In this document: one piece after another, positions 1 to 47,123 of the stretch
Position numbering within the stretch: position 1 is the first letter of the stretch
Layout of the letters: every line of letters starts with the position of its first letter
Translations under genes and position numbers: made by a program
Assembly (NCBI GenBank): GCA_016211105.1
Contig: JACQSX010000010.1
Coordinates: 212,913 to 276,912 of the forward strand
Reading direction: 5' to 3'
Length of the DNA: 64,000 nt
Source: Acidobacteriota bacterium
GTDB taxonomy: Bacteria; Acidobacteriota; UBA6911; JACQSX01
The notes under the pieces: model-generated
What the model was told of the DNA's origin: nothing
The model's input: only the letters and a program-made list of their open reading frames with translations
The model's database searches: none

Positions 1-178
1 AAAATCTTCTCCCGGTAATCTTTCTGGAGTTTTTGAAAAAGAAGAACGTCGAGCAGTTCGTCGGCAGACTGCCTTTCTTCCGCTTCGCCCGAGAGAAAAA
101 GGAGCCAGCCCAGGTCGGCATTCTTGCCGCCGACAGACGCGAGCTTGCGGAGTTTTTCCTCGGTTTCACGGATTGGCA
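1..178 (-). CDS. hypothetical protein, partial (start codon at 176-178, runs off window start)
   Basis: Minus-strand ORF reading MPIRETEEKLRKLASVGGKNADLGWLLFLSGEAEERQSADELLDVLLFQKLQKDYREKI continues past position 1; no recognisable family. Confidence 0.25.
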
Positions 179-391
179 TTTCATCGAAAACCGACCATGA
201 CAACGCTTTAAGCTTTGTACTGCAAGTCGACTCACACAGGGTATGAGCCCCTCTCTGGATTCCTGGATTTACTCTATACTTGTCTCACCGCCGGCAGAGG
301 CGACGAGGAGTTCCATAGCACCCGGGCCGTCCGCTCCTCTCTGCGGTGCGCCTAAAGTTTATTAAGCAGCGGTTTCATTGACTCTTGTCAT

Positions 392-1210
392 ATGGCAGCG
401 GTTCCTAAACTCAAAGAAGCCCACCTCGAAGCAATCTGCGACATCATCGCGGAGACTGGAACAGGGCTCACGGGCAGCGAAATCAGCAAGTTGCTGGCGC
501 GTTGTGCCATCGACGATCCCTTACCCAAGTACACGAAGCGCGTCCGGCTGTTCGAGGCTTTGCGAACCAGACAGCAGCGCGATGACTGCGGCAACCACGT
601 TCTCAATTTCATCCAGACAGCAATGGATCCGGCGCGTTTTGTCGGAGCTCCGGGCGCATTCCACGCAATGCGGAGCCAACTCAATCAGGCGCTAGCTTTT
701 GCGGGCTTTCAGCTGAAAGAGGACGGCAAGCTCATGCCTGTATCAGAAGCCCGAACCCTGACTGAGGCTCAGGAGCGGGCAGGGCGGCTCCGAAGGGAAC
801 TGCTCGACCGGAAAGTTCACCCTGACGTTCTCAGATTTTGCAGGCCTGAACTTCTTCAGGAAAACTACTTTCACGCGGTCTTCGAAGCCACAAAAAGCGT
901 GGCACAGAAAATCAGGGACAAGACAGGCCTCACCGGCGACGGCGCTGAAATCGTCGACAGGGCTTTTGGGCTGGGCAATCCAATTTTGGCGATAAATACG
1001 CTCCAGACTGAAACAGAGCAGTCAGAACAAAAGGGTTTTGCGAACCTGCTGAAGGGCGTCTTCGGCACGTTTCGTAATGTGACAGGTCACGCTCCGAAAA
1101 TCTCCTGGTCGGTAAGCGAGCAGGACGCGCTCGACATCCTCTCAATCGTCTCGTATTTGCATCGGCGGCTCGACGCCGCTGTGCGGGTGCCTACAACCGC
1201 TCGCCCCTGA
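392..1210 (+). CDS. HEPN-superfamily protein, Ymh/TIGR02391-like (Abi-like, often found beside R-M systems)
   Basis: 272 aa. The C-terminal region FGTFRNVTGHAPKISWSVSEQDALDILSIVSYLHRRLD carries an Rx4H (R-N-V-T-G-H) HEPN motif, matching my recollection of the Hypoth_Ymh/TIGR02391 C-terminal domain. Confidence 0.5.
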   Translation: MAAVPKLKEAHLEAICDIIAETGTGLTGSEISKLLARCAIDDPLPKYTKRVRLFEALRTRQQRDDCGNHVLNFIQTAMDPARFVGAPGAFHAMRSQLNQALAFAGFQLKEDGKLMPVSEARTLTEAQERAGRLRRELLDRKVHPDVLRFCRPELLQENYFHAVFEATKSVAQKIRDKTGLTGDGAEIVDRAFGLGNPILAINTLQTETEQSEQKGFANLLKGVFGTFRNVTGHAPKISWSVSEQDALDILSIVSYLHRRLDAAVRVPTTARP

Positions 1211-1226
1211 CGGCGGCGCCCACGAT

Positions 1227-1547
1227 TCACGGCTTGCCATTCTTGCGCAGAAGCTGCTTCTGCAGGCCCAGGATGTCCTTGAAGCACCTGATTTCTTCGA
1301 GCAGCTTGTGCTGCTTCACCTTGTTGAATTTGTCGAGGAGAGTCTGCGCCTCTGCTTCAAGCCGGCTCAGTTCGGCGTCTTTCATCTGCTCCCTGTGCTG
1401 GATGACAAATTCAATCGACGCTTTCAGCTCAATCTCCGTCCTGCAGTACCGGGTCAGAAACTCAACCGCCGCATCCAGCTCGAACGCCTCGTATTTTTTC
1501 AAGAACTCGTCGTCATCCACTCCGCTCTCTGTTTCCATGGGCATCAC
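1227..1547 (-). CDS. small hypothetical helical protein (106 aa)
   Basis: Clean ORF convergent with the HEPN/Ymh gene; acidic, predicted helical; no recognised motif. Confidence 0.3.
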   Translation of the reverse strand: MMPMETESGVDDDEFLKKYEAFELDAAVEFLTRYCRTEIELKASIEFVIQHREQMKDAELSRLEAEAQTLLDKFNKVKQHKLLEEIRCFKDILGLQKQLLRKNGKP

Positions 1548-1653
1548 CGACGAGAAAACTGGAGCCCGGGAGTCTTAAGGGTTGTAGTGCTGACCGCCAC
1601 ATGGCTCCGTCAAGTGCTTCCAACTTTAGGCAATCACCGGTAAGATTGACCAA

Positions 1654-4089
1654 ATGTACCGGAGTACTCAGTCGGATAATGAGGACAGAGCCTACTCTGT
1701 TTTTGTCACCCATCGCCCGCGCCGAGTCGCCTTCATGGTTGACCCGAGCGCTACCCCAGATTTCGTTTTTGATGAGATTGCCGACTTTAACGTCGATTGT
1801 TGGGGCGGCAGACACAATCCCATCATTCCCGTCGTCAACAAGGGCATCCTTCCTTCTTACTGGCGCTTGCTAGAGATTGCGGACGCAGATCTAATCGTTT
1901 GCTGTTCTGAAATCGATCAGACGACAATCGAGGAACTGGATCGGCGTCTTGGACCCACCTCGATTGACTGCCGTTGGAAGTTCAGTTCCCGGTCGGAATT
2001 CCGTATTTCACTGGATAACCAGGCCTCAAACAAGAACATTCTGTTGAATCTGGGACAGTTTTATCCTTGGTATGCACGCCTGCCAGAGCCTTCTGTTCTG
2101 GTGTTCAATGTCGAGAAAACGGATACCAAGACGGTAAGCCCGTTTATACGCAGGAATTTCGGTGTCTCACGTGATGCCTACTTTCTGACCCGAGACCGCG
2201 GCGTCCGGGGAACGTTCCCGGATTCCGATTCCGACTCAGTTATCATTGAGTGCGTCGGGCAAACAGCAAACCTCGTTCTGCCTATGGAAATATGCCGATC
2301 TGCACCGTTGCGGCATACGGTCGCAGCAGCTTGGCCGCATAAGTTTCTCATTTGCTACGGAGATAGCCCTTGGACCTTCCTTCGCTTTTGGAATGATGCC
2401 CATCTGAAGAGCTATCATAGCGGGGCGAGCACTGGGATTGACCAACTGTGGCTGCCTTCCAAGACCTTCAAGGACACGGCCGCATACGAAGCCCTAATCA
2501 CATTAATCAGGCGGAGAGTCTTCACAAGCGGTCGTCAGCGTGAGATGACACTCGCCTCGGTCGAAGTCGGCACGGCGGAGTTGAGAGACATTGCAGAGCG
2601 GATTTGCCGCGACACCAACTCGAATCTGTATCCTGGTGCACCCGAACTCATAGAACAGGATGGCTTTCCGATATGCGAGATCGGAGGCCCACCATTCGGG
2701 CTAGATCGCAGACTTCCTCAACACGCGCATGTTCGAGGCACGCCTGTGTTCATTGGCTTTGACCGACCCCGAGAGGTTGATAATGAGGGTAACGACATTT
2801 GGATGGCGGATCTCAGGGTCGAAGACCCGTACCAGGACAAATACTACTCCAACGCCAACCTCTGGTGGAGACTTCCTAAGCGTCAAAGTCTGGGAGGCCT
2901 GTTTACGCGTGGTGACTCAACAAATCGACATCGACCCTCTCGCGTCGGAGCTGATGGGGAATTGTCAGTCGAAGTGACAGCCAGGGATCAAGCCGTCCGC
3001 CTAACTTTACCGTCGCTACCGGCGCTGTTTCATTCGCTTTTGCTCCCAGAGAGTTGGCTCGTAACGAGAATGGATCTCCGGGATGGAATGCGCCGCAGTT
3101 ATGAAGAGACCCTGACACTTTCTGAAAAGGGAAAATATCTCAACGGCGTTCTCAACCTATTTTCATCGCTGTCAGAAGCAGTATATTTCTTTGAGAATCG
3201 GTTCTGGCGGGGGCTGCTGGAACAACTGTGCTGTCCTCGACTCTCGGAACAGGTGCGAAGTAAAGCCTCGAAGGACATTTCGAGAGACGCAGAGACCTTT
3301 ATCCGGGATTATCATGAGGACAGGACGGCTGCCATTGAATGGTTGACGGAAAAGGTGGTTCAAGCAGGAGATAAAATCCCGCTCGCCAATCAACCAATTC
3401 GATTCGTCGAGGTCGAGAAATGGCATATGCGGTTTCTTGAACAATTACCTGCAGAGTGGGCTGCGGCAGCCGCTGCTCATGAGAATATGCAACAACGGAT
3501 CTCCGACCTTACGCTTAATAGGGTTTTGCTCCAGGGGGCTGAGATTCACTGCAATTATTGCATGTCCACGTTTTGGTATCATGTCGATGAGTTGTCTGCG
3601 CTTTTAACATGTACGGGCTGCAGAAGCGAAATTGCACTTCCCGCAGAGACGATCTGGTGCTATCGACCAAACGAGCTTGTTCGAGCGGCAGTCAGGTACC
3701 AAGGGGTGGTGCCAGTGATAAGGGTTATCGGCCGGCTCTTTGAGGATGCAAGGGACTGCTTTAAGTTTCTGGCTGGCGCCGTTCTGTTTGACTACAAGCG
3801 CGACAAGCGAACAGCTGAGATAGACCTCTGTTGGATGCTGGATGGAGAGTTTGGTCTTGCGGAGGTGAAACAATCGTCGAGACTGTTTGGCCCTGGAGCT
3901 TGTGAAAACCTCATACGGGTAGCGCAGACTGCACGACCAGACAGGGTTCTTGTCGCCGCAACCGACGGTGAAGACCAAGATCTAGAGCGGACGCGGGAGA
4001 AGTTGGTGAAATCGCTTGCACCGCTCGGAATGAAGGTCGATGTTTGGGGTCCGGGATCGTTTAGCACTCTCTCTCCCCGAGCTATCTAG
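1654..4089 (+). CDS. large hypothetical protein (811 aa) with a C-terminal zinc ribbon and a PD-(D/E)xK-like motif; candidate defence effector
   Basis: Uninterrupted 811-aa ORF. CxxC..CxxC pairs (CNYCMSTF...CTGCRSE) are followed by EIDLCWMLDGEFGLAEVKQ, a D...E-x-K spacing typical of restriction-endonuclease-fold nucleases. Flanked by the HEPN/Ymh gene and hsdR. Confidence 0.55.
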   Translation: MYRSTQSDNEDRAYSVFVTHRPRRVAFMVDPSATPDFVFDEIADFNVDCWGGRHNPIIPVVNKGILPSYWRLLEIADADLIVCCSEIDQTTIEELDRRLGPTSIDCRWKFSSRSEFRISLDNQASNKNILLNLGQFYPWYARLPEPSVLVFNVEKTDTKTVSPFIRRNFGVSRDAYFLTRDRGVRGTFPDSDSDSVIIECVGQTANLVLPMEICRSAPLRHTVAAAWPHKFLICYGDSPWTFLRFWNDAHLKSYHSGASTGIDQLWLPSKTFKDTAAYEALITLIRRRVFTSGRQREMTLASVEVGTAELRDIAERICRDTNSNLYPGAPELIEQDGFPICEIGGPPFGLDRRLPQHAHVRGTPVFIGFDRPREVDNEGNDIWMADLRVEDPYQDKYYSNANLWWRLPKRQSLGGLFTRGDSTNRHRPSRVGADGELSVEVTARDQAVRLTLPSLPALFHSLLLPESWLVTRMDLRDGMRRSYEETLTLSEKGKYLNGVLNLFSSLSEAVYFFENRFWRGLLEQLCCPRLSEQVRSKASKDISRDAETFIRDYHEDRTAAIEWLTEKVVQAGDKIPLANQPIRFVEVEKWHMRFLEQLPAEWAAAAAAHENMQQRISDLTLNRVLLQGAEIHCNYCMSTFWYHVDELSALLTCTGCRSEIALPAETIWCYRPNELVRAAVRYQGVVPVIRVIGRLFEDARDCFKFLAGAVLFDYKRDKRTAEIDLCWMLDGEFGLAEVKQSSRLFGPGACENLIRVAQTARPDRVLVAATDGEDQDLERTREKLVKSLAPLGMKVDVWGPGSFSTLSPRAI

Positions 4090-4126
4090 ATGAAGTCGGC
4101 CCTCCTGCGGGGAGTATGGCCTGAGC

Positions 4127-7100
4127 TCACATCGCCGCGTAAACCCCGCGCCCCTCACCCGGGTACGAATCGTAAACGTGCTGGTAGATGAGTTCGCACT
4201 TGCCGTTGAAAAGCTCAGGTCCGAATTTCTCTGGCAGGCCTTTGTCGAGCACATCCTGAATCGCGACAAGCACCTGCGCCCGGGATTGTTGGCGTTTCCG
4301 CCAATCCAGAATCAGTTTTTCAGATTTCAGCGTGCCCAGCAGGTCCTTTGCCACTTTCTTGAGCTGGCCGCGTTCTTTCTGCGTCAGGTCCATCTCCGGC
4401 TTCGTTAGGAGATCGAATATCGCAAGTTCCTCCTCGGTAAGGCTTTCGGAGATGGCTCTTTTTTCCTCGACATTCAGCTCTTTGGCAAACTCCAACAGTT
4501 GCTTGAAGAAGATTTCCACGTTAATCGCGCCTGAATTGTATTCGTCGAGCATTTTTTGGAGACGGTCTCTGAAATCCACCCGGGTGCGGTTCATCCTGAG
4601 CATTTTCTCCAGCGTTTGCTCCACGAGGGAACGAAGCCGCTCCGTCTCGGTCCGCTTGCGGCTGACAGCGAATCGCTCTTTCAGAGCCTCGAAGTCTATC
4701 TGGCTCAAGTCGACGTAACGCTCTTCTTTCTCTTCGCCTGACTGGTGCCCGATGACGTAGGCTTCGGCGGCAACCGAGCGATCCAAAAGCTTTTCAACGT
4801 CGTCCATCACGCCTGAAATGTCAGCCTGGGGAGCGAGGGACTTTATCCGCTCTGCTATGACGGCAACAACATTGCGCCGTTCCAGAAACTCGTTTCCTCT
4901 CGGATCAGGCAGAATCGCTCGAAAGAGCCTGACGGCGTCTGAGACCATGAAGAGAAACTGGCGCTTTGTCTGGTCGTTGACCATGATTGCTTCGGCAGCG
5001 TCCTTGATGAGGCGCACACGCTCGAACTTGACTGCTTCCCTGATTTTGTCGGCGTTGACGCCGTGGTCGGAGCAGAATGCCTCCACCCTCTCGATGGCTG
5101 CTCGCAAGAGCTCGACCAGCCTGTCTTTCGAAAGAACCGGGGTTTCCCCTCCCCCAATCGTGCCGCCATGGCCAGAGCCGTAGATGGCAAGTGCTTTCTG
5201 CAGGTTGCGGAAGACGCCGACGTAATCGACGATAAGCCCATTCACCTTGTCGCGAAAGACTCGATTAGCTCTCGCAATCGTCTGCATCAAGGTGTGGTTG
5301 CGCATCGGTTTGTCGAGGTAAATTGTTGAGCAGCAGGGAACATCAAAGCCGGTCATCCACATGGCGCAGACAAACACGATTCGAAATGGGTCGTCTGCGT
5401 TCTTGAATTTTCTATCCAGGTCTTGCTTCACCATGCGCTGGCGGTGAGGAAGGATATCCAGGCCCTTTTTCTTCATCTCCTCAATCTCGTTCTGGGATTG
5501 GGAAATCACGACGGCCATGTCAGTTTCAGCCATGTACTTGATCTTTTCTTCCAGCTCTTCGCGTTGCGGGCCTTCAGAGGTTGTTACCAGCTGCTTTCGA
5601 AGATTCGCGAGATGCTGCTGCCAGTGCTTTCTGACTTTGTCGTACATACGGACAGCGGTTGCCTTGTCGACTGAGACAACCATTGCCTTGTCCCGGTATC
5701 CTCGCCCCATGAAATGCGCCACGATGTCCTCGGCGATTGTCTCCAGCCGGTCATCCCTGGTGATGAGGTGGTATTGACGGGAAAATTCACGCTCCAGCTT
5801 CTTCTCCTGCTCTTCGTCGAGCTCAGCGTTTTCAAGCAGAGCTTCCATTTCCCCATTGAAGTCCTTATTGGTGAGCTGGAGCTCTGGAATGCGGTTTTCG
5901 TAGTAAAGCGGCACCGTCGAGCGGTCATCCAGTGATTGCTTGAAGTCATAAATGCTGACATAGTCGCCAAAGACGTCGCGCGTCTTTTCCTCCCCGACAA
6001 TCAAAGGTGTGCCAGTGAAAGCCAGGAATGCTGCCTTAGGAAGGGCATCACGCATGTTCTTCGCTAGAATGTCGTACTGTGTGCGATGTGCCTCGTCAGT
6101 CATGATAATGACATCAGACCTGGCCGAAATGACTGGATGCCGCTGGCCACGCTCGGTGCGGAATTTATGGATGATTGTGAAGACATGCCTGTGGTCCTCG
6201 GAAAGCAGCTGCCTGAGGTGGGCGCTGCTTGTGGCATGCACATCAGGCTCGATGACCAGTGAGGCGTTGGCGAACTTTTCGTAGATTTGGGTATCTAAAT
6301 CGTCGCGGTCAGTCACAATTACAAACGTCCATCTGCCGGGAATCTTTCTCAGCACTTTCTGTGAAAAAAACATCATCGCATAGGTTTTGCCGCTGCCCTG
6401 AGTGTGCCAAAACACGCCAAGCTTGCCTTGGTTCTGTTTAATTTGTGCCAGAGCCCGAATGCTGTTGTTGACGCCGAGAAACTGATGGTACTTGGCAAGA
6501 ATCTTTACGAGCGGGCCAAATTCAGTCGTGAAAAGGATGAAGTTTTCGAGAATGTCGATGAAACGAGTTTTCTCGCACGTGCCCCGGATTGCGGTTTCCA
6601 GCGAAACGATGCCTGGCTCTTCCTCGCTGCTTATCTTCTTCCATTCGCTGAAATGCTCCCACGGCGCCGTCATTGTGCCCACTTTGCTCTCGCTGCCGTT
6701 GGATAGGATGATGAAGGCGTTGTACCAAAAAAGCTGGGGAATCGTTGACTTGTAGTCGCAGAGGTTCTTGTCGAAGGCATTCTTGAGATTCTTGTGAACG
6801 GCCTTTAATTCCACGAAGATGAGGGGCAATCCATTGACAAAGCCCAGCAAGTCCACTCGGCGCTTGTAAATCTCGCCTGCAATCCAGAATTGCGACGCCA
6901 GAAAGAAGTCGTTGTTCCCGGCATTGTCCCAATCAATGACCCTGACCGTCTCGGTTTCCTGAGCGCCGTTCTCGTCGGTAATGGTCACATGGACGCCGTC
7001 TTTTAGGAGCCGGTACACCTCACGATTGGCAACAACAGGGTTCAAAGCGCTGCGGTCCTGCGTGAGCTGCTCAACAGCCAGGTCAATTGTGCCACTGGGC

Positions 7101-7300
7101 AAATCAGGATTCAGCTTCTGAAGAGAGGATCTCAGTTTCGGAACCAGCACAACTTCTTGCGTCGTCGTGCGTCCGAGCGTTGCGCTGTCGCCGCCACATT
7201 TCTCGTAAAAGCAGTTCGCCGCCTTCCAGTCCAATTCCTCAAACAGCGCGATTGCCGGCCGCTCGATGAGGGCGTCTTCGGAGTACCCGCCAGGCATCAT
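4127..7300 (-). CDS. hsdR: Type I restriction enzyme R subunit (HsdR)
   Basis: 1057 aa; Walker A HTQGSGKTYAMMFF; DEAH box IIMTDEAHRTQ; sits downstream of hsdS/hsdM. Confidence 0.9.
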   Translation of the reverse strand: MMPGGYSEDALIERPAIALFEELDWKAANCFYEKCGGDSATLGRTTTQEVVLVPKLRSSLQKLNPDLPSGTIDLAVEQLTQDRSALNPVVANREVYRLLKDGVHVTITDENGAQETETVRVIDWDNAGNNDFFLASQFWIAGEIYKRRVDLLGFVNGLPLIFVELKAVHKNLKNAFDKNLCDYKSTIPQLFWYNAFIILSNGSESKVGTMTAPWEHFSEWKKISSEEEPGIVSLETAIRGTCEKTRFIDILENFILFTTEFGPLVKILAKYHQFLGVNNSIRALAQIKQNQGKLGVFWHTQGSGKTYAMMFFSQKVLRKIPGRWTFVIVTDRDDLDTQIYEKFANASLVIEPDVHATSSAHLRQLLSEDHRHVFTIIHKFRTERGQRHPVISARSDVIIMTDEAHRTQYDILAKNMRDALPKAAFLAFTGTPLIVGEEKTRDVFGDYVSIYDFKQSLDDRSTVPLYYENRIPELQLTNKDFNGEMEALLENAELDEEQEKKLEREFSRQYHLITRDDRLETIAEDIVAHFMGRGYRDKAMVVSVDKATAVRMYDKVRKHWQQHLANLRKQLVTTSEGPQREELEEKIKYMAETDMAVVISQSQNEIEEMKKKGLDILPHRQRMVKQDLDRKFKNADDPFRIVFVCAMWMTGFDVPCCSTIYLDKPMRNHTLMQTIARANRVFRDKVNGLIVDYVGVFRNLQKALAIYGSGHGGTIGGGETPVLSKDRLVELLRAAIERVEAFCSDHGVNADKIREAVKFERVRLIKDAAEAIMVNDQTKRQFLFMVSDAVRLFRAILPDPRGNEFLERRNVVAVIAERIKSLAPQADISGVMDDVEKLLDRSVAAEAYVIGHQSGEEKEERYVDLSQIDFEALKERFAVSRKRTETERLRSLVEQTLEKMLRMNRTRVDFRDRLQKMLDEYNSGAINVEIFFKQLLEFAKELNVEEKRAISESLTEEELAIFDLLTKPEMDLTQKERGQLKKVAKDLLGTLKSEKLILDWRKRQQSRAQVLVAIQDVLDKGLPEKFGPELFNGKCELIYQHVYDSYPGEGRGVYAAM

Positions 7301-8526
7301 GCCATCGTCGCCTCTGTCTTGATGTCCATCTCGGACACATCAATCTCACCTGAAATCAATCTTGGAAGAAGCAGATCGCGGGTTTGGCGGAGAGCAAACG
7401 TTTTCTTCGCAAGAACATCAATAAACTCGAACAATGGTCTTACTGTTTCACCAAACGACTGCGACATCTTCGACGGTGCCGTCACGATTGTCTTCGCTGT
7501 GAGCTCGGTCCAATGTCGCTTGTACTCTTGGGTCGTCACGAGATCCCGTACGAGGAAAAATAAGTAGTAAATGGAAAAGCCCTCCTGTCCGATGAAGGGC
7601 ACCACGTTCGGGCCGATAGAAAAGGGCTCGACCATCAGCCTCATTTTGCAGGTGTGGTCACCAAAGGCAATTACGGGATTTTCAGGCGAGGCCAGATGAT
7701 CGGCGTTGTTATCGTGAAATCCCAAAAGCTCATCTCGCGATTGGTCAATCACTGGCACCGAGCCGACTGCATTAACTTCAGATTCAATATAGACGGTCCC
7801 GGCCTTCAGCCGCTTTAGAACTCCCCTGACTGTCTTAACCTCCCACCCCTTCGGAATCAGCCCCAGCTCCGAGTCGACCATCTTCACGTTCTCGTGTCCG
7901 GGGAAACGAAAGTCGACGAACCACTCTCGGTAAATCCTCTGCGCCATCTCGTCAAGAATCTGGATTCGGCGGATGTTGTTCTCGATGAGCTCGTCGTAGG
8001 CGGAAAGGATGGCGGCGATCCGCCGCTGTATCGGGAGCAGGGGAATTTCAATTGGCTCACGCTCTGAGAATGTCGTCCACTGGAAACGAGCCACGCCGGT
8101 ATGCTGCGTGTGATACGCGTGCATCAAACCAGAGGCATAGAGTTGCTGGAGATACCAGAACATGAATTCCGGGTCGCAAAGCTTGGTGTTGAAACGGATG
8201 AAGCGACTGAAACTTGCGCACGTGAACGGAAGCTCGGACCGTGAGAATAACTGTGGGCGAAGCAAAACCGTTCGACCAGTGATTTGATCCTTCGTTCCGC
8301 CAGCCGCTTCGATTATCAGATCCCACGGCTGAAGCGTTTTTCTCTCGGCAATTCGCTTGGGAATATGACGCCGTGGAGTTGAAGCAGCGTTGCCGAACCG
8401 CACGTTCTCGAAGTCCGTTCCCCGGATTGCGAGCATTTCAACAGAGTCCTTGAACGGCTCGCCCTTTCCCCACTCTCCATCTTTTGAGATGGTGATAAGG
8501 TCTTTGAGAACGCACTCCATCGTCAC
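7297..8526 (-). CDS. hsdS: Type I R-M specificity subunit (HsdS)
   Basis: 409 aa with two target-recognition-domain-like halves, lying between hsdM and hsdR; 4-bp start/stop overlaps on both sides. Confidence 0.85.
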
Positions 8527-10076
8527 GCCTCCAGAATCTTCGCGACGTTGCGCGCAATCGTCTCTTGGAGGCTAAGCGCCTCAGCGTTCAAGAGTTCCAA
8601 TTCCTCGCTGAGCTCTTCAAGCCTTTCGCTGAAGTCAAAGTCATCGGCGGCACGCTCGGTTACGCCGACGTACCTTCCAGGATTCAGGCTCCAGCCTTGT
8701 CCTTCAATCTCTTTTATAGAAGCGACCTTGCAAAGCCCAAGAACGTCACGATATTTGCCTTTGGGAAAATGCTCCTCAACTAGCGCCTTGCCCCCTTTGA
8801 AAGTTTCGATTGATTCGTCACGGTAAAGCCGAACGATATTTGCAATAAACTCAATTTGCGCCGGAGTGAACTCCCGGTGAGCCCGATCAACTTGCGTGAA
8901 AATATGGCGGGCGTCGATAAACAGGACTTTGTTCTTCCGCTCCGTCTTTCTTTTCCCCTTGTCGAGGAACCAGAGCGTGCACGGAAGCGTAACGGTGTAA
9001 AAGAAATTTGCCCCGACGGCGATCATTACGTCGACGCCTTGCTCTTCGATCAATTTCCTCCGAATCTCCAACTCTGAGCTGCGAGCGTCGCTTGCAGAAT
9101 TGGCCATGACGAATCCGGCGCGCCCTTTGTCGTTCAGCGACGACCAAAAGATTTCGATCCACAGATAATTTGCTTTATCGACACGGGGGAGGCCGAGGCC
9201 GAAGCGTTTATCGTCCTTGAGCTTTTCCTTGTCGACGCCATCCACGTTAAACGGAGGATTCGCCATGACGAAATCGAACTTGCCGAGGCTGCGGTGCTCG
9301 TCTTCATAATAGGAATTGCCCTGCTTGATGTCGCCTTCCAGGCCGTGAACGGCCAGGTTCATTCGGCACAGCCTCACGGTCTCTGCGACTTTTTCCTCGC
9401 CGTAAATCGAGATCTCGTCTGGTGTTTTCTGATGGCTCTTTACGAAGTCCGCGCTTTGGACGAACATGCCGCCCGAACCACAAGCAGGGTCGAAAATCTT
9501 TCCATGAAAGGGCTCGATGACCTCGACAATCAGCCGAACCAGAGACCTGGGCGTGAAGAATTCGCCGCCTCTTTGTCCTTCAGCCATTGCGAACTTGCCG
9601 AGGAAATATTCATAGGTCTTTCCGAAAACATCACCCTCGAAATCCATCTCAATCTTGGAAAATGTTCTCAAAAGGGCAACCAGCGTGTCGTTCTCCAGCC
9701 GGTTGTAATCCTTTGGCAGGACCCCTCGCAGCTGCTCGTTATCCTCCTCTACAGATTTCATCGCCTCGTTAATGTCCTTGCCGATGTTGGCGCCCTCGGG
9801 TAAATCGAGCAGGCGTGAGTAGCGGGCTTTTGCCGAAATGTAGAGGACACCCCGGGCGTGAAAATCAGTTTTCGAAATGGCTTTTCGACGAGAGCCGGCA
9901 CCGCCCTTTTCAAATTCCTTGTTCAGAACCGTGAACTTGTGGTCGGCGTATCGCAGGAAAATGAGACCGAGAACCGGAACCGCATATTCTGACGACTTCA
10001 GACGAGAATTAGCCCGGAGCTGGTCTGCGGACTCCCACAGGCGCTTCTCGATTTCGGAATTGTTGCTGACTGCCAT
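8523..10076 (-). CDS. hsdM: Type I R-M N6-adenine DNA methyltransferase (HsdM)
   Basis: 517 aa; the N-terminal HsdM_N-like region and the NPPFN catalytic motif ([10 protein letters not shown]). Confidence 0.9.
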
Positions 10077-10161: not shown

Positions 10162-11997
10162 TCATCGTTGTGCCTCGGCGCCCAGGCGGGATGGATTCCA
10201 GATTTGCTCCGCAAGTTGTCGGTACAATTCGTGCCTGGCGTCAAGATCAGTCTTCAAGAAATCCTTGTGGGGCTGAAAGGGCAATCCCGATGCCTTAGCG
10301 TACTTTGCAAAGCCCGGATTGTGCTTGTAGCAGTTTGGGTGAAGAGATTTAGCGAGAATGTTCTGTCCGAAGTAGTGCTCCAGTTTCTTCTCGTACGTGA
10401 GGTCGCCAAAGCTCGCGTTGAACGTTTTTGGCAGGAGCAGCAGGCCACCGAACCGGTTACGGTACTCGGCAAAGTCGGCAGGATGGTCGAATTCTGCCCT
10501 GTGTCGCGAGAACTTGTCCGCCCAGATATGCTCGACCTCGTATCCGTGTTTACCCTTGCCCGCAATGTAATCCATGAAATGGCTGTCTAGCCCACTCTCC
10601 CGCTCAACGTGATCAACCATGCGGGCGAGCAGTTGCTGGATCGTGTGCCGATTTTGTTGGTGAAGCGCGAACCGATCGTTCGATGCGAAAGTCTCGCCGT
10701 CACTTTCGAGTCGGTCCTTGAGGATCGTCACAAGTTCCCGCGGTGATTTGCCCCTGATGTCACGCATGACTAAGAACATGGAGTACTGAACAGTCGAGTA
10801 TGCGATGCTGCGGAAATTCCAGAGGCGGCGTGCCAGAAGAATATCGACGAAAGCCGCAACGATTCGGAGCTTCTTGTTGATCAGCTCATCGGAATCATCC
10901 GGCTTCAGCGGCGAGAGAAGGAGCGGGTACTGGAGCGTGAAATCGTGCCGTGCGTTATAGAAGATTGTTTCGAGTCCGGTTGTAAGCTGTTGAGACGCCT
11001 GGCGTAGGCGAAGATATTGTGTCGCGTAAAACGCAAAATCGCGGGCGATGAACGTGACGAATTCTGCGCTCTTTTTGAGCCCAAGGTCCTTTTGATGTTC
11101 CCTAACCCATCGATGGAATTCTGTACCGAGACGGTCGAAGTCTCCTGGAAGTGCGCCTTTCTTTCGTTCACGAATCGTCTGGGCGTACTGCGAACGAAGC
11201 CACGTCTTGACGGCGTCAGCATCTTCATCTTTGCCCAAATCGATCAGCGTACCGACCCGCTCCTTCCAGACGGCGTTGGCATCCAACCGCTTTTGCTCGT
11301 CGGTGATGTTCGCCAGAAGGAAGCCCTTGAGCATGTCAGTAGGACTCAAAGACAAGCCGCGGTCGTTCATAGTCTCGAAAATCGTGTAGGCGTCCTCGTC
11401 GGTGTATGCGGTAATCTCGACGAGATGAACATTTTCAATGAGCCAGTCCAGGAAGTACGGGAGAGCTTCACCGACGAGATCGTCGGGGAAATACTGCTGG
11501 ATGTCATGGTAGCGTGCCAGGATATTGCGGACGGATTCCGGCTGGTCCGTGTCGTCAAACGGGTGCCCGGCAAAGAGCGCCTCCATACAAGGGCGCCGTT
11601 CCTCCACGTCGAGGTTGAAGGATTTCTTTGCAAATTTCTCTGAAAAGATGAGTTCGTCGATTGGAACCTTGTCAGTGCGGGTTTTCTGAAGATTGTGCAG
11701 ATGAATCAGCATCAGCGTCAGAGTCGTGAGCCGTTGCTGCCCGTCGATAATGAAGCTGTGCCCGTTCTTGTGGCTGATAATGATCGAGCCCAAAAAGTAA
11801 TGACCGTAATCAGCAACTTCTGACCGCTCGTGACTCGGCCGAAAATCCTGGAGGAATTTACTGGCCAGGTCGTCTATCAGCTCGGTAACTTGTTTGGTTT
11901 GCCATTTGAATTCTCGCTGGTAGTAGTCGATAGCGTACTTTGCGCCCGCCAACAATTTGCGGACTGTTTTCGCTTCCCCGTCGATTTTCTTCATCAC
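10162..11997 (-). CDS. GmrSD-family Type IV restriction endonuclease (DUF262 ParB-like NTPase N-domain + DUF1524 His-Me nuclease C-domain)
   Basis: FIIDGQQRLTTL (the DGQQR motif of DUF262); C-terminal HGYEVEHIWADKFSRH (DUF1524 HNH-like motif). Confidence 0.8.
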   Translation of the reverse strand: MMKKIDGEAKTVRKLLAGAKYAIDYYQREFKWQTKQVTELIDDLASKFLQDFRPSHERSEVADYGHYFLGSIIISHKNGHSFIIDGQQRLTTLTLMLIHLHNLQKTRTDKVPIDELIFSEKFAKKSFNLDVEERRPCMEALFAGHPFDDTDQPESVRNILARYHDIQQYFPDDLVGEALPYFLDWLIENVHLVEITAYTDEDAYTIFETMNDRGLSLSPTDMLKGFLLANITDEQKRLDANAVWKERVGTLIDLGKDEDADAVKTWLRSQYAQTIRERKKGALPGDFDRLGTEFHRWVREHQKDLGLKKSAEFVTFIARDFAFYATQYLRLRQASQQLTTGLETIFYNARHDFTLQYPLLLSPLKPDDSDELINKKLRIVAAFVDILLARRLWNFRSIAYSTVQYSMFLVMRDIRGKSPRELVTILKDRLESDGETFASNDRFALHQQNRHTIQQLLARMVDHVERESGLDSHFMDYIAGKGKHGYEVEHIWADKFSRHRAEFDHPADFAEYRNRFGGLLLLPKTFNASFGDLTYEKKLEHYFGQNILAKSLHPNCYKHNPGFAKYAKASGLPFQPHKDFLKTDLDARHELYRQLAEQIWNPSRLGAEAQR

Positions 11998-12317
11998 TCC
12001 ACCTCAGAAAGCAGGCAGTGTTCCACTTCATTGACGTCGGGCATTAGCTCCGGAATTGACATCGTTTCCATCCACGGCAGCGACTCTCTTGAGATTAATA
12101 AATCTTTCTTGTTCTTATGTTTACAGGCGATTTCCAAAAAGTAAACCTCGCTGCGCCAAGTATACTCCAACTGCTCGGACATGCTCCAGCCAACGCAGAT
12201 GCGCTCCACGACGGCGGAAAGAATTAAATAGAACGATTCCGACCCAGGCACTTCGGGCGTTAAAATGGCTTCTACCAGTGGCGCCGTCCCGCCAAAGACA
12301 AAATGGTTAACAAACAC
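11994..12317 (-). CDS. small hypothetical protein (107 aa) translationally coupled to the GmrSD gene
   Basis: Its stop overlaps the GmrSD start (ATGA); no recognised motif. Confidence 0.35.
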   Translation of the reverse strand: MFVNHFVFGGTAPLVEAILTPEVPGSESFYLILSAVVERICVGWSMSEQLEYTWRSEVYFLEIACKHKNKKDLLISRESLPWMETMSIPELMPDVNEVEHCLLSEVE

Positions 12318-14708
12318 ACGCTTTCACCGGCTCAGTGGACAAGGTTTTGGAACCGCCTCGAAGTTTACGTGCGAAAGCGAGGCCGCATTCTGAAGCACTA
12401 CAATCCGAAGAAGGAGTATCCGGCGCTCAAACAAGTCGGAGTTGGTGTCGAGGAAATCGACCGTGTACGCAAAGCATTCGCGACTTACCATGACGAGCTT
12501 CTTTTCCGAAAGTTTTCCCTCTTCTTCCGCAGAGACCCGCCAACTATTCAGCGCTGGACCGGGGCCGCAGACCCGTCAGCCGCTTTCATCAGACTTTTTC
12601 ATATTTTTCAGCGCAATGAACTCCGCAGGCTCGAAAAGCGGTTTCAGGAGCTTTTTCTCCTCCACAAGCTCAATGAAAAAGGAGAGGGGCGAAAGTATGA
12701 GGCAGCTCACGGCCGCAGCGGTTCGGTTTTAAAGTTCGATCCTGTAAGATTTTCGCGACTTCTGAATAGGCGCGATGAACGGGCCAGCTTCACGGTTCTG
12801 CCCAGGATCCAGTTCGGCGAATGGACCATCCTGCCGCTCTTGAAGAAGGGTTCAGGCAGTCCCGTTTACAAATTCATCAAACTTGACAAGAAGGACCGTA
12901 AGCTCCTGGTTCGAATTTCAGCAGACTCTCCCAAGGAAATCGAACTGATCCGATCCGTGTTGAACAACGCCTTCAGGATCTACCTCGACACGCCCCAGGT
13001 GCATGCCACCTTCGACAGGCTGGCTCAATTTCTCAAAACCGGGGATGCAAGCCATTTCCTACTGACGGGCGGAACATACTTTCACGACGAGTATAGGATT
13101 TCGGTACTGCCGAAATATGGCAGGCCGCAGAACATCGCGAGCTGCAGCTCTTACAGCGGCCGGCTTGCGAACGTCTCAAAACCTGAAGCCGTTTTCACCC
13201 AGATGAGGCTCCTTCACAAGGAAATCCGCGCACGCAGTCAAGTATTCATCGATTTTCGGACTCCGCAGAGCAGCAGCATCATCGGAGCCGTTCTTCTCAA
13301 TCTGAACGATCGCCGCCTCAATTCTGAGGAGCGGGAACGCATCGCTCGGGATTTCCGAAGCGATTTTGAATTGCCGTTAAACGAGTTTATCGAGTACGAG
13401 GACGTGCCCGAGGAAGACGTCTACAAGAAGCTGCTACAGAACATTCCCAAGCAACCAACTGAATTCGAGCTGCGGTCAGAGCGCTCCCTGCGAATTTACC
13501 GAGAATTGGTCAGCGCCGGGCTGCTCCCGTGGAAGGTCCAAACCAACCAGGCGAGATTTTGTACAAAGCAGGATTGCCGGGCCGCCTACCAGACCAAATA
13601 CAACCAGAAGACCTGCCCTGTTTGCGGAGAGAACATGCTCGCGGGCAGAGCCACGGTCGTTGAGGACATTGACGAGAAGAGAGTTGCTGACTTCGCGGCC
13701 ACAATCTGCCAGCAACTCGGTTTTCAGACGACACAATTCAAGCGGCGCCTGCTGACTCGGGACATTTTGGTTGTGGAAATCAGGAATGGAGACGACTTCA
13801 TTGAGCTTGTACCCATCAGCAAAGCGTTAACGGATAATCAGACCGAGATTCTTCGCCTTCGGTACCCCAGCCTGGTACTGTTGACGTCGAGAGACGACGC
13901 TGCGGAGCTCAGGCAAAAGCATTTCGAGACCAGGGAGCTCTCCAATTTTGCGTACTCAGTCCGCAAACCCGGCGCTCAGGCGTACGTCAAGCGGTTGCTC
14001 GCTGACTCCAGAGGCGAAAGGCCCACCCACTTGACGAATCATGCAAGTGGCTGCCGTTTGCGGTTCGTAGATGACTCCGTGTACCTCGAAAAGAACAAGG
14101 CTTCCAAAAACTTTGGCGCAGAGTTGTTTGAGGCCGACTGCTCCGTTTTGCTCAGTTGCATTTTTGGCAATTCCATCTGGCTCGGCGCCCGAAAGAGGGG
14201 AAAGGCGCTGCCTGACGGAGTGACCGCTTTTCCAGTCACGGGAACAAGAAACGGATGTTTCGTGTGGGATGCAAAATTCAGTAGTACCGACAGGGTTGTC
14301 CTCGGGAGCCACGACAAGAATAGAAAATATATCAGCGAAGCGAGAGCCAATGAAACCGTCGCAGCAAATGGCGGCGTCAAAGGATTCCTCTTCGTCGGCA
14401 ACAAGCCGGCACCAAAAACATTTACGGGGCTGTCGCGACAGCTTGTTGGAAACAAAAGAATTAAACTATCCTATTGGGAAATGAAGCACTTGCGGACGCT
14501 GTTTGACCACTTCAGGGCGCACCAGACCGTCATCAACAGCAACAATGACGTCCGGGACGTGTTTGTTGATGCCGTCAAAGAGCTGCTTTTCAAGACGGCC
14601 GGCCGCAAGAGGGCATTCGCGATGACCGACGAGTTTCTCGACGGAGTCATGACGAGGAGCGCTGACGAGTATCAGAGGTTGGCCGGAGCGCGACAACTGC
14701 ACGCTTGA
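12303..14708 (+). CDS. large hypothetical protein (801 aa) with a central zinc ribbon and a C-terminal nuclease-like D...DAK motif; candidate defence gene
   Basis: CTKQDCRAAYQTKYNQKTCPVCGENM (CxxxC...CxxC). C-terminal ELFEADCSVLL...GCFVWDAKF resembles PD-(D/E)xK spacing. Divergent from the GmrSD operon. Confidence 0.55.
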   Translation: MVNKHTLSPAQWTRFWNRLEVYVRKRGRILKHYNPKKEYPALKQVGVGVEEIDRVRKAFATYHDELLFRKFSLFFRRDPPTIQRWTGAADPSAAFIRLFHIFQRNELRRLEKRFQELFLLHKLNEKGEGRKYEAAHGRSGSVLKFDPVRFSRLLNRRDERASFTVLPRIQFGEWTILPLLKKGSGSPVYKFIKLDKKDRKLLVRISADSPKEIELIRSVLNNAFRIYLDTPQVHATFDRLAQFLKTGDASHFLLTGGTYFHDEYRISVLPKYGRPQNIASCSSYSGRLANVSKPEAVFTQMRLLHKEIRARSQVFIDFRTPQSSSIIGAVLLNLNDRRLNSEERERIARDFRSDFELPLNEFIEYEDVPEEDVYKKLLQNIPKQPTEFELRSERSLRIYRELVSAGLLPWKVQTNQARFCTKQDCRAAYQTKYNQKTCPVCGENMLAGRATVVEDIDEKRVADFAATICQQLGFQTTQFKRRLLTRDILVVEIRNGDDFIELVPISKALTDNQTEILRLRYPSLVLLTSRDDAAELRQKHFETRELSNFAYSVRKPGAQAYVKRLLADSRGERPTHLTNHASGCRLRFVDDSVYLEKNKASKNFGAELFEADCSVLLSCIFGNSIWLGARKRGKALPDGVTAFPVTGTRNGCFVWDAKFSSTDRVVLGSHDKNRKYISEARANETVAANGGVKGFLFVGNKPAPKTFTGLSRQLVGNKRIKLSYWEMKHLRTLFDHFRAHQTVINSNNDVRDVFVDAVKELLFKTAGRKRAFAMTDEFLDGVMTRSADEYQRLAGARQLHA

Positions 14709-15062: not shown

Positions 15063-15296
15063 ATGGCAAAGAAACCGGTTCACATAGTTCCACGAGATAA
15101 CGGCTGGGCAGTTCGGCGGGAGGGCGCTCAGCGTGATTCTTCACATCACGATACCAAGGCTGATGCCGATAAGGTTGGCCGGCGGACCGCTCAGAGAGAC
15201 CACACCGAGTTGGTCACCCACGGCAAAGACGGGAAGATCCAGGATAAAGACAGCTTTGGGAACGATCCGTTTCCGCCACGGGACACCAAGCATTGA
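15063..15296 (+). CDS. DUF2188 family protein
   Basis: HIVPRDNGWAVRREGAQRDSSHHDTKADA...VTHGKDGKIQDKDSFGNDPFPPRD matches the DUF2188 pattern as I recall it. A TATACT -10-like box and a GGAAGGAAG RBS lie upstream. Confidence 0.7.
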   Translation: MAKKPVHIVPRDNGWAVRREGAQRDSSHHDTKADADKVGRRTAQRDHTELVTHGKDGKIQDKDSFGNDPFPPRDTKH

Positions 15297-15306
15297 CATC
15301 AACGCG

Positions 15307-16230
15307 ATGGAGACGTCCGAGAAAGCTGCAACATCTGACTGGTTTGACCTCGGGGCAAAAGCCCTCCGCCAAACTGTAAAAGATCTGCCAGAACTGTACG
15401 CGTGCCCGCTGTGTCTTCATGGATTCGAACGTGAACAGATCGGCTATTTGACCAGGGAGCATGTTCCCCCAGCCTGCTTTGGGGGAGAAAAACTGATCCT
15501 GACCTGCGGGGAGTGCAACACGAGGGCCCGACATTCAATCGATGCTGAACTCGGCAAATTCATCCATCTCAGGAAGTTTGTTCGCCGAGAAATGGATGAG
15601 ATGAGGCAGTACAAGGTGACGATGAACGGGACAACCGCGAATGTCCTCGTGCGGTTTGGCTCAGACAAATGTGAAGTCGTCGATTTCTCAAACAGAAACA
15701 GCCCAGTCGTGAGCGCCGACCTCAGAAACCACCTCGACATTGCCTCGGCCACGGCCAGCCTGGACTGGGGTTTTAAAATGAGCCCAGTGCAGGATAGATA
15801 TCGAATCGGTTGGCCTGAAGTCAGCCTGCTGCGCGCCGTGTATTTGGCTGCGTTTGCAAAGTTTGGTTACGCCTACATTATGCGACCGGCTCTTGACACG
15901 GTTCGGAAGCAGATCCGACAGCCCGAAAAGAGGCTCATCAAGTATTTCCTGACGCCAGTCGTGGACGCACCCGACGAGACACGAGTCATCGCTTACGTGC
16001 AAAAGCCCGAATGGATGCGCTGCCTCATGGCTCAGATCGGCCAATTTCGCATTTTCCTGCCGTTTTTTGACGAGGAAGCTTCCCTTTACAAGCGCCTGAG
16101 CGAGGCACACAATAACCGCGAGAAAACCAAAGTCAGCGCAACCCTGTTGCCGTGGCCTCGCACTCCCGAGTTTCTTCTCGACTTCCACAAGGCTGCTGTT
16201 GTGCGGCGGCTCCGGCCCAGCGACTCTTAA
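15307..16230 (+). CDS. HNH-endonuclease-like protein (about 307 aa)
   Basis: CPLCLHGFEREQIGYLTREHVPPACFGGEKLILTCGECNTRARH has the CxxC...H...CxxC arrangement of an HNH/His-Me finger. The start is placed at ATG 15307, just after the DUF2188 stop, rather than at the overlapping ORF-track start 15133. Confidence 0.5.
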   Translation: METSEKAATSDWFDLGAKALRQTVKDLPELYACPLCLHGFEREQIGYLTREHVPPACFGGEKLILTCGECNTRARHSIDAELGKFIHLRKFVRREMDEMRQYKVTMNGTTANVLVRFGSDKCEVVDFSNRNSPVVSADLRNHLDIASATASLDWGFKMSPVQDRYRIGWPEVSLLRAVYLAAFAKFGYAYIMRPALDTVRKQIRQPEKRLIKYFLTPVVDAPDETRVIAYVQKPEWMRCLMAQIGQFRIFLPFFDEEASLYKRLSEAHNNREKTKVSATLLPWPRTPEFLLDFHKAAVVRRLRPSDS

Positions 16231-16596: not shown

Positions 16597-17595
16597 ATGA
16601 CAACAGTCGACGCGGAGGTAGTGAGTGGGCTTGAGCGGGAAATCGAGGTCGAGACTCTGAGCATGCCATCTACGCACCCTCCGAGATCCTACGCGGCTCA
16701 CAAGACCGGTAGTGGAGTGACGTACTGCGGCTCTGCCGAGAGAGTACTAACGTCGTCAATCGGCAGAAAGCTTAAAGGTAAGGTACAGCTCATTTTTACG
16801 TCTCCGCCGTTCCCGCTGAATCGAAAAAAGAAGTACGGCAACCTGCAGGGGGAAGCCTACGTGAAATGGTTGTCCGCTTTTGCTCCACTTTTCAGGGATC
16901 TCCTGAAAGAGGATGGATCCATAGTAATGGAGCTTGGAAATGCATGGCAACCTGGCGAACCGGTAATGTCTACACTCGCGCTCAAAGCGTTGCTTGCATT
17001 CCTTGAAGAGGGGAAATTTCATCTCTGCCAACAATTCGTCTGTTACAATCCTGCTCGTCTCCCAAGCCCGGCTCAATGGGTAAATGTCGAGCGGATTCGC
17101 GTCAAGGATGCTTACACGCACGTATGGTGGATGGCACCTTCGGAGCGCCCCCAGGCTGACAACAGGCGTGTTCTGAAAGAGTACAGCCCTGCGATGCTGA
17201 AACTTTTATCTTCCAAAAAATACAACTCAGGAAGGCGGCCTTCGGAACACAAGATTGGTTCAAAATCATTTTTTCAGAACAACAACGGCGCGATTCCGTC
17301 CAACGTCCTCACGTTTGCAAACACGAACAGCAATGACCAGTACTCAAATTACTGTCGCCGAAACAATCTCAGACTTCACCCAGCGAGGATGGCAATCGGC
17401 TTGCCTGAGTTTTTCATAAGATTCCTGACCACGCCAAAGAACCTCGTCGTGGACCCATTTGCCGGGAGCAACACTACAGGGGCAGCTGCGGAAAGGCTAA
17501 AGCGCCGCTGGATCGCCATAGAGCCCAACAACGAGTACATTGCCGGCTCTGTGGGACGTTTTCCGGGACAGGAAGTGTATTCCAATGACACCTGA
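16597..17595 (+). CDS. DNA methyltransferase, beta-class N6A/N4C (motif IV before motif I)
   Basis: LIFTSPPFPLN ((S/D)PPF catalytic motif) followed much later by VVDPFAGSNTTG (FxGxG AdoMet motif). Confidence 0.8.
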   Translation: MTTVDAEVVSGLEREIEVETLSMPSTHPPRSYAAHKTGSGVTYCGSAERVLTSSIGRKLKGKVQLIFTSPPFPLNRKKKYGNLQGEAYVKWLSAFAPLFRDLLKEDGSIVMELGNAWQPGEPVMSTLALKALLAFLEEGKFHLCQQFVCYNPARLPSPAQWVNVERIRVKDAYTHVWWMAPSERPQADNRRVLKEYSPAMLKLLSSKKYNSGRRPSEHKIGSKSFFQNNNGAIPSNVLTFANTNSNDQYSNYCRRNNLRLHPARMAIGLPEFFIRFLTTPKNLVVDPFAGSNTTGAAAERLKRRWIAIEPNNEYIAGSVGRFPGQEVYSNDT

Positions 17596-46926: not shown

Positions 46927-47123
46927 TGAATCGAAGTTTCAGTCGCGAGAGGTCAAGTGATGAGAGATGCCCTGGGGACCGCTCGTGTTCATCTAAGGTG
47001 TTTGGTTTGAGAAAGATTTCTTGTTTCTCGACGAGCCGGCGGCGGGGAGAAAGGAGGCTGGCGACAATCGCTCGCAAGTGGCTTGGTAGATCTTTGACAA
47101 CTAAAAGGGTTAGGATGCGGGCT

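Follow-up and report, generated by a model that had tools for sequence, protein, structure and literature searches.

A Ymh-type HEPN gene and the gene of an 811-residue putative nuclease: probably independent neighbours in an acidobacterial defence island

Gene content at the left end of the window

We analyzed a 64,000-nucleotide (nt) stretch of contig JACQSX010000010.1 (positions 212,913 to 276,912 of the forward strand; assembly GCA_016211105.1, Acidobacteriota bacterium), hereafter the window, whose left end carries a gene for a Ymh-type HEPN protein, a small convergent gene (orf106) and a gene for an 811-residue protein with a C-terminal zinc ribbon and nuclease motif, next to a Type I restriction-modification (R-M) operon. 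A first-pass annotation had proposed that the two larger genes, together with the small one, could form a two-component system attached to the R-M unit (its open reading frame (ORF) coordinates are all borne out by the ORF list). The most probable reading (roughly 0.7, in our estimation) is instead that three independent genes (the Ymh gene, the unit of orf106 and a HerA-like gene, and the 811-residue gene) stand together only by way of a dense defence island. The features on which the argument turns are the following (coordinates in the window):

1-179, minus strand: 5' end of a HerA-like (DUF87) ATPase gene, start codon at 179-177, continuing off the left window edge
165-180: left copy of a 16-nt direct repeat, TTCACGGATTGGCATT (repeat search and junction reading)
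181-1225: insert of ~1,045 bp relative to contigs L158, L159 and L161, with the Ymh gene on the opposite strand to the genes on either side
392-1210, plus strand: gene for a TIGR02391/Ymh HEPN protein of PD-lambda-3 B type, 272 residues (Pfam, NCBIfam, PADLOC)
1226-1241: right copy of the 16-nt direct repeat, TTCACGGCTTGCCATT (repeat search and junction reading)
1227-1547, minus strand: orf106, conserved hypothetical protein, 106 residues (103 by other gene callers)
1654-4089, plus strand: gene for the 811-residue protein, whose family is large and uncharacterised (unmatched in Pfam, NCBIfam and PADLOC)
3550-3621, plus strand: four-Cys zinc ribbon, CNYC...CTGC (C633-x2-C636...C653-x2-C656)
3670-4068, plus strand: PD-(D/E)xK nuclease domain, residues ~673-805
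4127-7300, minus strand: hsdR (Pfam HSDR_N/SWI2_SNF2/T1RH-like_C)
7297-8526, minus strand: hsdS (Pfam Methylase_S)
8523-10076, minus strand: hsdM (Pfam N6_Mtase/HsdM_N)

The Ymh gene is preceded by 212 nt of non-coding DNA and then by the divergent HerA-like gene, and is separated from the 811-residue gene by 443 nt that hold the opposite-strand conserved orf106. The 811-residue gene does lie beside a Type I R-M operon, as the first-pass annotation had it: the three hsd genes (4127-10076, minus strand) are convergent with it, with a stop-to-stop gap of 37 nt. Promoter and terminator scans over window positions 1-4400 gave counts no higher than chance.

The stretch around the Ymh and 811-residue genes is a large defence island (defence genes across the window: HerA-like, Type I R-M, GmrSD, HNH, Type II-type methyltransferase, WYL and type I cas). 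That two genes adjoin each other there says little about whether they form a system.

Linkage between the Ymh and 811-residue genes

Loci of the 811-residue family were collected by pattern scans (64 genomic and 80 metagenomic); ORFs were called in the 144 loci and searched with the window proteins, and 143 of them contain a family member. The family gene is full-length in 110 loci, of which 82 have at least 1.3 kb of upstream and 81 at least 1.3 kb of downstream sequence, so that the absence of a Ymh gene is informative. No Ymh gene was found near the family in any of the 143 loci (phmmer), and neither were orf106, the HerA-like gene or hsdS; hsdR was found near 3, hsdM near 5 and GmrSD near 3. 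A hidden Markov model of Ymh run over the same loci returned one weak match (19 bits, in contig L126), restricted to the N-terminal domain. Reciprocally, no 811-residue homologue was detected in six independent contexts of Ymh genes (four of the contigs L147-L152 by phmmer, and L156 and L157 by annotation tables). We are highly confident that the two genes do not make up an obligate system.

The reading under which the Ymh gene, the small ORF and the 811-residue nuclease make up one abortive-infection-like system on hsdRSM, comparable to PD-lambda-3 or PrrC/EcoprrI, draws on several observations: the genes are adjacent, two of them share a strand and all lie beside a Type I R-M operon; PD-lambda-3 pairs a Ymh-type B protein with a small PD...K-like protein (PMC10952713); Ymh genes have been reported in operon with R-M (PMC3710099) and directly follow HsdR-like genes in contigs L148, L150 and L157; and in L126 an HEPN-like gene stands beside a family member. 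We nevertheless deem it very improbable, given the reciprocal counts (0/143 and 0/6), the antisense gene and the 443-nt gap between the two larger genes, the assignment of the small ORF to the HerA-like operon, the position of the Ymh gene in an insertion bounded by direct repeats (both treated below) and the lack of homology between PD-Lambda-3_A and the 811-residue protein. The PD-Lambda-3_A protein was tried as a remote relative of the 811-residue family and rejected (hhalign probability 0.3%). Neither does the proposed attachment to hsdRSM stand, as hsdR and hsdM accompany just 3 and 5 of the 143 family loci and the Ymh gene lies outside the hsd operon; with the conserved-neighbourhood check negative in both directions, the two-component proposal is not sustained.

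No other partner of the 811-residue gene emerged. All-against-all clustering of the ORFs within 6 kb gave no cluster present in more than 7 of the 143 loci, and the larger clusters were generic (response regulators, ABC ATPases and IS1595 transposases, transposases of this type being found near 5 loci). In 31 loci the nearest neighbours, 124 in all, were scanned with Pfam and PADLOC, and four was the highest count of any one Pfam family. They are a mixture of housekeeping genes with defence or mobile genes, the latter (in raw counts) being SLFN_AlbA_2 (four times), HamB, SngC, BrxH and nSTAND3 (twice each), GajB, two HNH proteins, a Type I methyltransferase and integrases. No cognate methyltransferase is conserved near the family, and hence the possibility that the 811-residue protein is a classical R-M endonuclease was rejected. 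Cyclases, Cas10, CD-NTases and type III CRISPR were likewise absent from the conserved neighbours.

Probable insertion of the Ymh gene into an operon

Sequence to the left of the window edge was taken from Logan contigs. At the same locus in contig L146 (677-2029) the complete HerA-like product has 450 residues and matches Pfam DUF87 (5e-9), PADLOC mad8 (3.5e-14) and several HerA models. The product of orf106 has four homologues (65-73% identity) and is a rare but genuine conserved protein, whose sole family match is weak (CTD11 of ABC-3C, E 0.003, under the Pfam cut-off).

In contigs L158, L159 and L161 the HerA-like start overlaps the end of orf106 by ~20 nt, orf106 being the first gene of the operon, and the gene that follows orf106 in L161 and L158 is 86-88% identical to window positions 179-3 (minus strand, tblastn). 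Because orf106 and the HerA-like gene form an operon in other contigs, the small convergent gene belongs with the HerA-like gene; it accompanies neither the Ymh nor the 811-residue gene, and its inclusion in the system proposed earlier does not hold. By blastn the three contigs are contiguous to window positions 1590/1603-1226 and 181-1, with nothing between, and thus the window has an insert of ~1,045 bp relative to them.

The 16-nt copies that flank this insert are identical at 14 of 16 positions and spaced 1061 nt apart. Read on the minus strand, the left copy contains the HerA-like start (ATG CCA ATC CGT GAA) and the right copy the end of orf106 (...AAT GGC AAG CCG TGA), the repeat being the duplicated junction of orf106 stop and HerA-like start. 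We stress that a 16-nt repeat is by itself unremarkable in 1.2 kb, and that it gains meaning by coinciding with both homology breakpoints. The repeat search found no terminal inverted repeats at the boundaries of the insert, and its DNA resembles other Ymh loci nowhere beyond the coding region. Judged from these alignments, the Ymh gene appears to have been inserted as a segment of ~1 kb that splits the orf106/HerA-like operon, which would make it a concrete case of defence-island growth.

The Ymh protein and its relation to PD-lambda-3

The 272-residue protein consists of an N-terminal domain of ~140 residues followed by a C-terminal HEPN domain, and matches PF09509 (Hypoth_Ymh) at 5e-45 over residues 140-260 (152.6 bits against a cut-off of 25) and TIGR02391 at 2e-40 (137.6 bits against a cut-off of 39.45). 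Its Rx4H motif RNVTGH (R228-N-V-T-G-H233) is encoded at 1073-1090, and an alignment of 15 homologues shows no variation at R228, N229 or H233. The first-pass annotation had recognised a Ymh-like HEPN protein with the signature FRNVTGH in 392-1210, correctly so, and had added that the family is known to associate with R-M loci, which agrees with the literature, where it is described as solos and fusions that also occur in operon with R-M (PMC3710099). Homologues number more than 4,800 matches, the best 120 listed being 62-74% identical.

The PADLOC model PD-Lambda-3_B matches at 1.2e-93 and along 1-266 of its 270 positions, that is, over the whole protein and beyond the HEPN domain alone. PD-lambda-3 is a two-gene system from an Escherichia coli screen (Vassallo et al. 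2022, PMC9519451, whose main text gives no domain-by-domain description of it); it behaves as abortive infection (PMC13190303), a PD-(D/E)xK domain is listed for it (PMC10952713), and the complete A+B pair has been reported in Proteobacteria only (bioRxiv 10.1101/2024.10.26.620412). The B component and the Ymh protein share both the N-terminal domain and the Ymh HEPN domain with its invariant Rx4H motif, whereas the A component is absent here and the host is a metagenome-assembled genome (MAG) of Acidobacteria. On the Klebsiella pneumoniae plasmid NZ_CP063748.1 (contig L156) A is a 152-residue ORF (PD-Lambda-3_A model, 2e-78) with a PD...K-like motif, which lies directly upstream of, and pairs with, a Ymh-type B gene (591 bits; A+B at 4440-5804). 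This ORF is omitted from the gene table of the plasmid, and the A+B pair adjoins Hachiman (HamA/HamB). The PD-Lambda-3_A model matched none of the window proteins scanned (PADLOC), and tblastn with the Klebsiella A protein (E<=1) found no homologue anywhere in the 64 kb of the window, nor in six further loci that have a Ymh gene. From these matches the Ymh gene is best classed as encoding a PD-lambda-3 B-type protein without A, a further member of a known family; HEPN proteins of the B type mostly occur without A.

The ORF at L126:12683-13492 (269 residues), which adjoins a member of the 811-residue family, shares the N-terminal domain (~120 residues) of the Ymh protein and has a different, Rx6H-bearing C-terminus (RNEMSDAH). 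This suggests that the N-terminal domain of the PD-lambda-3 B-type protein is a module common to several HEPN proteins.

Elsewhere, Ymh genes were found in these contexts:

L148, 4852-6816: directly after an HsdR fragment
L150, 4025-6822: preceded by a fragment of the HsdR N-terminus and by a Schlafen/AlbA_2 gene
L157 (Ti plasmid), 2653-5786: overlapping the end of a 'type I restriction endonuclease' gene
L156 (Klebsiella plasmid): beside Hachiman
L152 and L147: Ymh gene alone

L148, L150 and L157 are unrelated loci in which an HsdR-like ORF or fragment lies immediately 5' of the Ymh gene, the two overlapping by as much as 4 nt or standing up to 31 nt apart; this recurrent order of HsdR and then Ymh differs from the arrangement in the window. 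Taken together, the contexts fit the published description of the family and indicate no fixed partner.

R-M-linked HEPN proteins have been proposed to respond to phage interference with restriction, by analogy with PrrC and RloC, and RNase activity of the Ymh family is so far a prediction only (PMC3710099). With the Ymh family and R-M-linked HEPN nucleases such as PrrC and RloC the protein has in common the HEPN domain with its Rx4-6H motif, its occurrence as a solo protein and its location in a defence island that includes Type I R-M (PMC3710099). Its gene, however, lies outside the hsd operon, and the protein has no ATPase fusion, whereas PrrC and RloC have ABC-type ATPases and some Ymh proteins are fused to paraMORC. 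One alternative is that the Ymh protein acts in trans with the Type I R-M system, which would hold it silent until a phage blocks restriction, as in PrrC/EcoprrI; the 811-residue gene would be uninvolved. The family's association with R-M operons and the proposed PrrC/RloC analogy (PMC3710099) are compatible with this, as are the three loci with a Ymh gene directly downstream of an HsdR-like ORF and the intact hsdRSM 2.9 kb from the Ymh gene in the window; the gene, however, is on the other strand from the hsd operon, two genes off and inside an unrelated operon, and in L152, L147 and L156 Ymh genes occur with no R-M nearby. On balance we hold action in trans to be improbable, if less so than a single system comprising all three genes.

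The 811-residue protein and its family

The EIDL...AEVK motif of the 811-residue protein is encoded at 3817-3870 (codons of D724 at 3823-3825, E737 at 3862-3864 and K739 at 3868-3870). In 54 members that share 20-41% identity, and also in an alignment of 26 homologues, C633, C636, C653, C656, D724, E737 and K739 are invariant, and distant proteobacterial members also retain D724, E737 and K739; the Cys/PD-(D/E)xK pattern is a conserved one and no product of chance. Further invariant residues lie in the N-terminal alpha/beta region (R21, G52 and D79, with the motifs HRPRRVAF and WGGRxNPIIP) and in the helical region (S490, in SDKG). The NCBI annotation places the start at Met-28 (784 residues), omitting window positions 1654-1734 and with them the invariant R21/P22 of HRPRRVAF. 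As that start would delete family-invariant residues, the ATG at 1654, which is also used by the Logan gene calls, is the better one.

Known families offered little. No PADLOC-DB v2 family (Shedu, Type IV restriction endonucleases and PDC candidates included) matched the protein at E<=0.1, no named nuclease family of Pfam or NCBIfam matched it, and the family profiles A1 and A2 matched no PDB sequence. Across the 54 members Pfam recognised generic Zn-ribbon models only (Zn_ribbon_IS1595 in 4 of them), and the first ~620 residues of the protein had no Pfam, NCBIfam, PADLOC or PDB match.

The family itself is large. A word-indexed search gave 28 relatives, against 3,267 cluster representatives (50% identity) at E<=1e-3 in an exhaustive profile search, of which 627 were at E<=1e-30; nearly all members have ~800 residues and align end to end. 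They occur in Acidobacteriota, Bacteroidota, Nitrospirota, WOR-3, Armatimonadota, Cyanobacteria (a Synechococcus MAG) and Proteobacteria, and the most distant ones (Rhizobiales, Anaeromyxobacter and Bryobacterales) keep RPxR-h-u-F...WGGRxNPIIP, CxxC...CxxC and ExD...(G/A)ExK. None of 50,697 phage records matched the 811-residue protein, and 72,556 plasmids yielded just 2 matches. The distribution is patchy and associated with mobile elements, and inheritance is stand-alone; what characterises the family is its domain layout (a large N-terminal region that stays constant, then the zinc ribbon), its intact metal-dependent nuclease site with invariant catalytic residues and its fold, with neither a conserved partner nor a cognate methyltransferase.

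On the Burkholderia glumae conjugative plasmid NZ_CP052134.1 (2219-10296) an 834-residue family member lies near MazEF and comes directly after three tandem tyrosine recombinase genes and a 174-residue ORF (resembling a recombinase-in-trio element); this member looks like mobile-element cargo.

Such a setting is one of the points in favour of a non-immune function, in which the family would be a DNA-processing nuclease for a mobile element or for repair and recombination, its location in islands being incidental. Housekeeping neighbours at many family loci, the IS1595-type transposases near 5 loci, the Zn_ribbon_IS1595 matches of 4 members and the lack of a PADLOC model match can be read in the same direction. 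We nonetheless think a non-immune role unlikely, although it is the strongest of the competing explanations: there is no conserved partner and no fixed position relative to recombinases, matches are absent from the phage records and nearly so from the plasmids, and the patchy spread across phyla, together with the repeated Hachiman, Gabija, BREX-helicase, Schlafen-like and STAND neighbours, better fits defence cargo.

Predicted structure of the 811-residue protein

An AlphaFold2 model of the 811-residue protein, built from the 26-sequence alignment, had a mean predicted local distance difference test (pLDDT) score of 84.8 and a predicted template-modelling (TM) score of 0.81. Its regions are:

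residues up to ~335: alpha/beta units
residues ~355-450: beta-rich region
residues ~455-621: helical region
residues 625-672: beta strands of the ribbon
residues 674-798: alpha-beta-beta-beta-alpha-beta nuclease core

The core is composed of helices (H) and strands (E) H674-697, E703-713, E718-729, E732-741, H747-760 and E764-771, with the catalytic D...(D/E)xK residues on strands 2 and 3. A Foldseek search of the PDB with the full model ranked the PD-(D/E)xK nucleases Can2, VC1899 and Cdn1 at the top (E 1.8e-5 to 1.8e-3, probability 0.99-1.0), and one of BFVD returned phage 'restriction endonucleases' and Rpb5-type domains (80-130 residues, root-mean-square deviation (rmsd) 3-5 Å). The suggestion, made at first from the paired CxxC motifs and EIDL...EVK, that the C-terminus has a restriction-endonuclease fold is therefore backed by the invariant residues, the model and the structural matches, and we predict with good confidence that the protein is an active nuclease.

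The identity of the best matches calls for a closer look at the N-terminus. Can2 (8q3y at E 1.8e-5, 8q44 and 8bao), VC1899 (1xmx) and Cdn1 with cyclic tetra-adenylate (cA4; 9u49) would be in keeping with a Can2/Card1/Cdn1-like effector, whose Rossmann-type N-terminal sensor binds a cyclic oligonucleotide and activates the nuclease, and so would the Foldseek alignments of ~580-600 columns and the Rossmann-like beta-alpha-beta units with invariant polar residues in the N-terminal region. These long alignments, however, have an rmsd of 18-19 Å, and the tighter ones, with 146-186 columns, are about as long as the nuclease domain by itself (query coordinates are not part of the output). Residues 1-340 modelled alone (pLDDT 85.8) had no significant match in the PDB (best E 3e-3, TM score ~0.2, to ZnuA-like and ANL folds, which are unrelated alpha/beta folds of two lobes), with no CARF or SAVED protein in the top 50. 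The conserved neighbours of the family include no cyclase, Cas10 or CD-NTase, and the cas genes of the window are of type I (Cas8b, Cas7, Cas5 and Cas3). An effector of this kind therefore seems to us a long shot. The N-terminal CARF domain that the full-length Can2 matches had raised was dropped on the strength of the model of residues 1-340; most plausibly, to go by the models, the similarity to Can2 is carried by the nuclease domain.

Interpretation of the locus

We reason, then, that the Ymh gene, the orf106/HerA-like unit and the 811-residue gene are independent occupants of one island. The Ymh protein would most likely act as a self-contained, infection-triggered RNase, its N-terminal domain of ~140 residues serving to sense or restrain, and it might be set off when a phage interferes with restriction, a response proposed for HEPN proteins linked to R-M (PMC3710099); its gene would have arrived as the ~1-kb insertion that splits the operon of the 106-residue ORF and the HerA-like gene. 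The 811-residue protein would most likely be a single-polypeptide sensor-nuclease: DNA that is foreign or modified, or some product of the phage, would be the cue detected by its N-terminal region, upon which DNA would be cleaved by the zinc-ribbon/PD-(D/E)xK module, although the DNA substrate, the sensing of infection and the role in defence are all things that we infer.

Several points weigh against this reading. The comparison contigs may instead have lost the segment that carries the Ymh gene; the reciprocal test covers few Ymh contexts; and L126, the sole case in 143 loci, has an HEPN-like gene beside a family member. The precedent of PD-lambda-3, in which a small PD-(D/E)xK-like A protein accompanies the HEPN protein B, would by analogy make a pairing of HEPN protein and nuclease plausible in principle. 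As for the 811-residue protein, housekeeping genes, such as those for aldo-keto reductase, ferrochelatase and aminotransferase, adjoin the family gene at many loci, and the role of 'sensor' is read from the architecture, with no informative match for the N-terminal 620 residues. We put a role of the 811-residue protein in defence at even odds. The more specific proposal, that the ~800-residue family is a widespread and undescribed single-gene anti-phage nuclease whose N-terminus of ~620 residues represents a new type of sensor for infection or foreign DNA, is tentative and falls somewhat short of that.

The 811-residue protein resembles the known defence nucleases that combine a sensor with PD-(D/E)xK, yet fails a defining feature of each. 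Its best structural matches, Can2, Card1, VC1899 and Cdn1 (CARF plus PD-(D/E)xK, type III CRISPR; PMC7969007, PMC10783487, PMC12825302), have a regulatory N-terminus before a C-terminal nuclease, as proposed here; the 811-residue protein, however, is about twice as long and has a four-Cys zinc ribbon before the nuclease, shows no CARF domain (residues 1-340) and no similarity at sequence level, and its family is not associated with type III CRISPR or a cyclase. With Shedu (SduA) and Type IV enzymes (GmrSD) it shares the stand-alone state, the lack of a cognate methyltransferase, the location in a defence island and a C-terminal nuclease with invariant catalytic residues behind a large non-catalytic N-terminal region. 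Unlike them, it has no PADLOC match (mREase_IV included), and its N-terminal architecture is constant where theirs is variable.

Should the family prove immune, the known defences would gain a large single-gene system that spans phyla and has a sensor region with no known fold relatives. The family is common in Acidobacteriota and Bacteroidota, two groups that screens centred on E. coli cover poorly. The negative result has a bearing of its own: adjacency in a defence island, even with a precedent such as PD-lambda-3, does not count as evidence of a system.

Remaining gene content of the window

Beyond the R-M operon, the following features were annotated:

10162-11997: GmrSD-type Type IV enzyme
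12303-14708: 801-residue ORF adjoining the GmrSD gene (no significant Pfam, NCBIfam or PADLOC match)
15133-16230: HNH_5 protein
16597-17595: N6/N4 DNA methyltransferase (PADLOC MTase_II, 9e-89)
17540-19873: 777-residue ORF overlapping the N6/N4 methyltransferase gene (no family match)
20947-21987: WYL/WCX regulator
26679-28589: Cas8b
30382-32715: Cas3
45154-46926: Cas4-Cas1 fusion
47121-47450: CRISPR array of five 36-nt repeats

The cas set, which also includes Cas7 and Cas5, is of type I. Between 33.5 and 45.1 kb lies a stretch of ~11.7 kb in which the longest ORF has at most 242 residues. The 777-residue ORF may encode the cognate endonuclease of the N6/N4 methyltransferase whose gene it overlaps.

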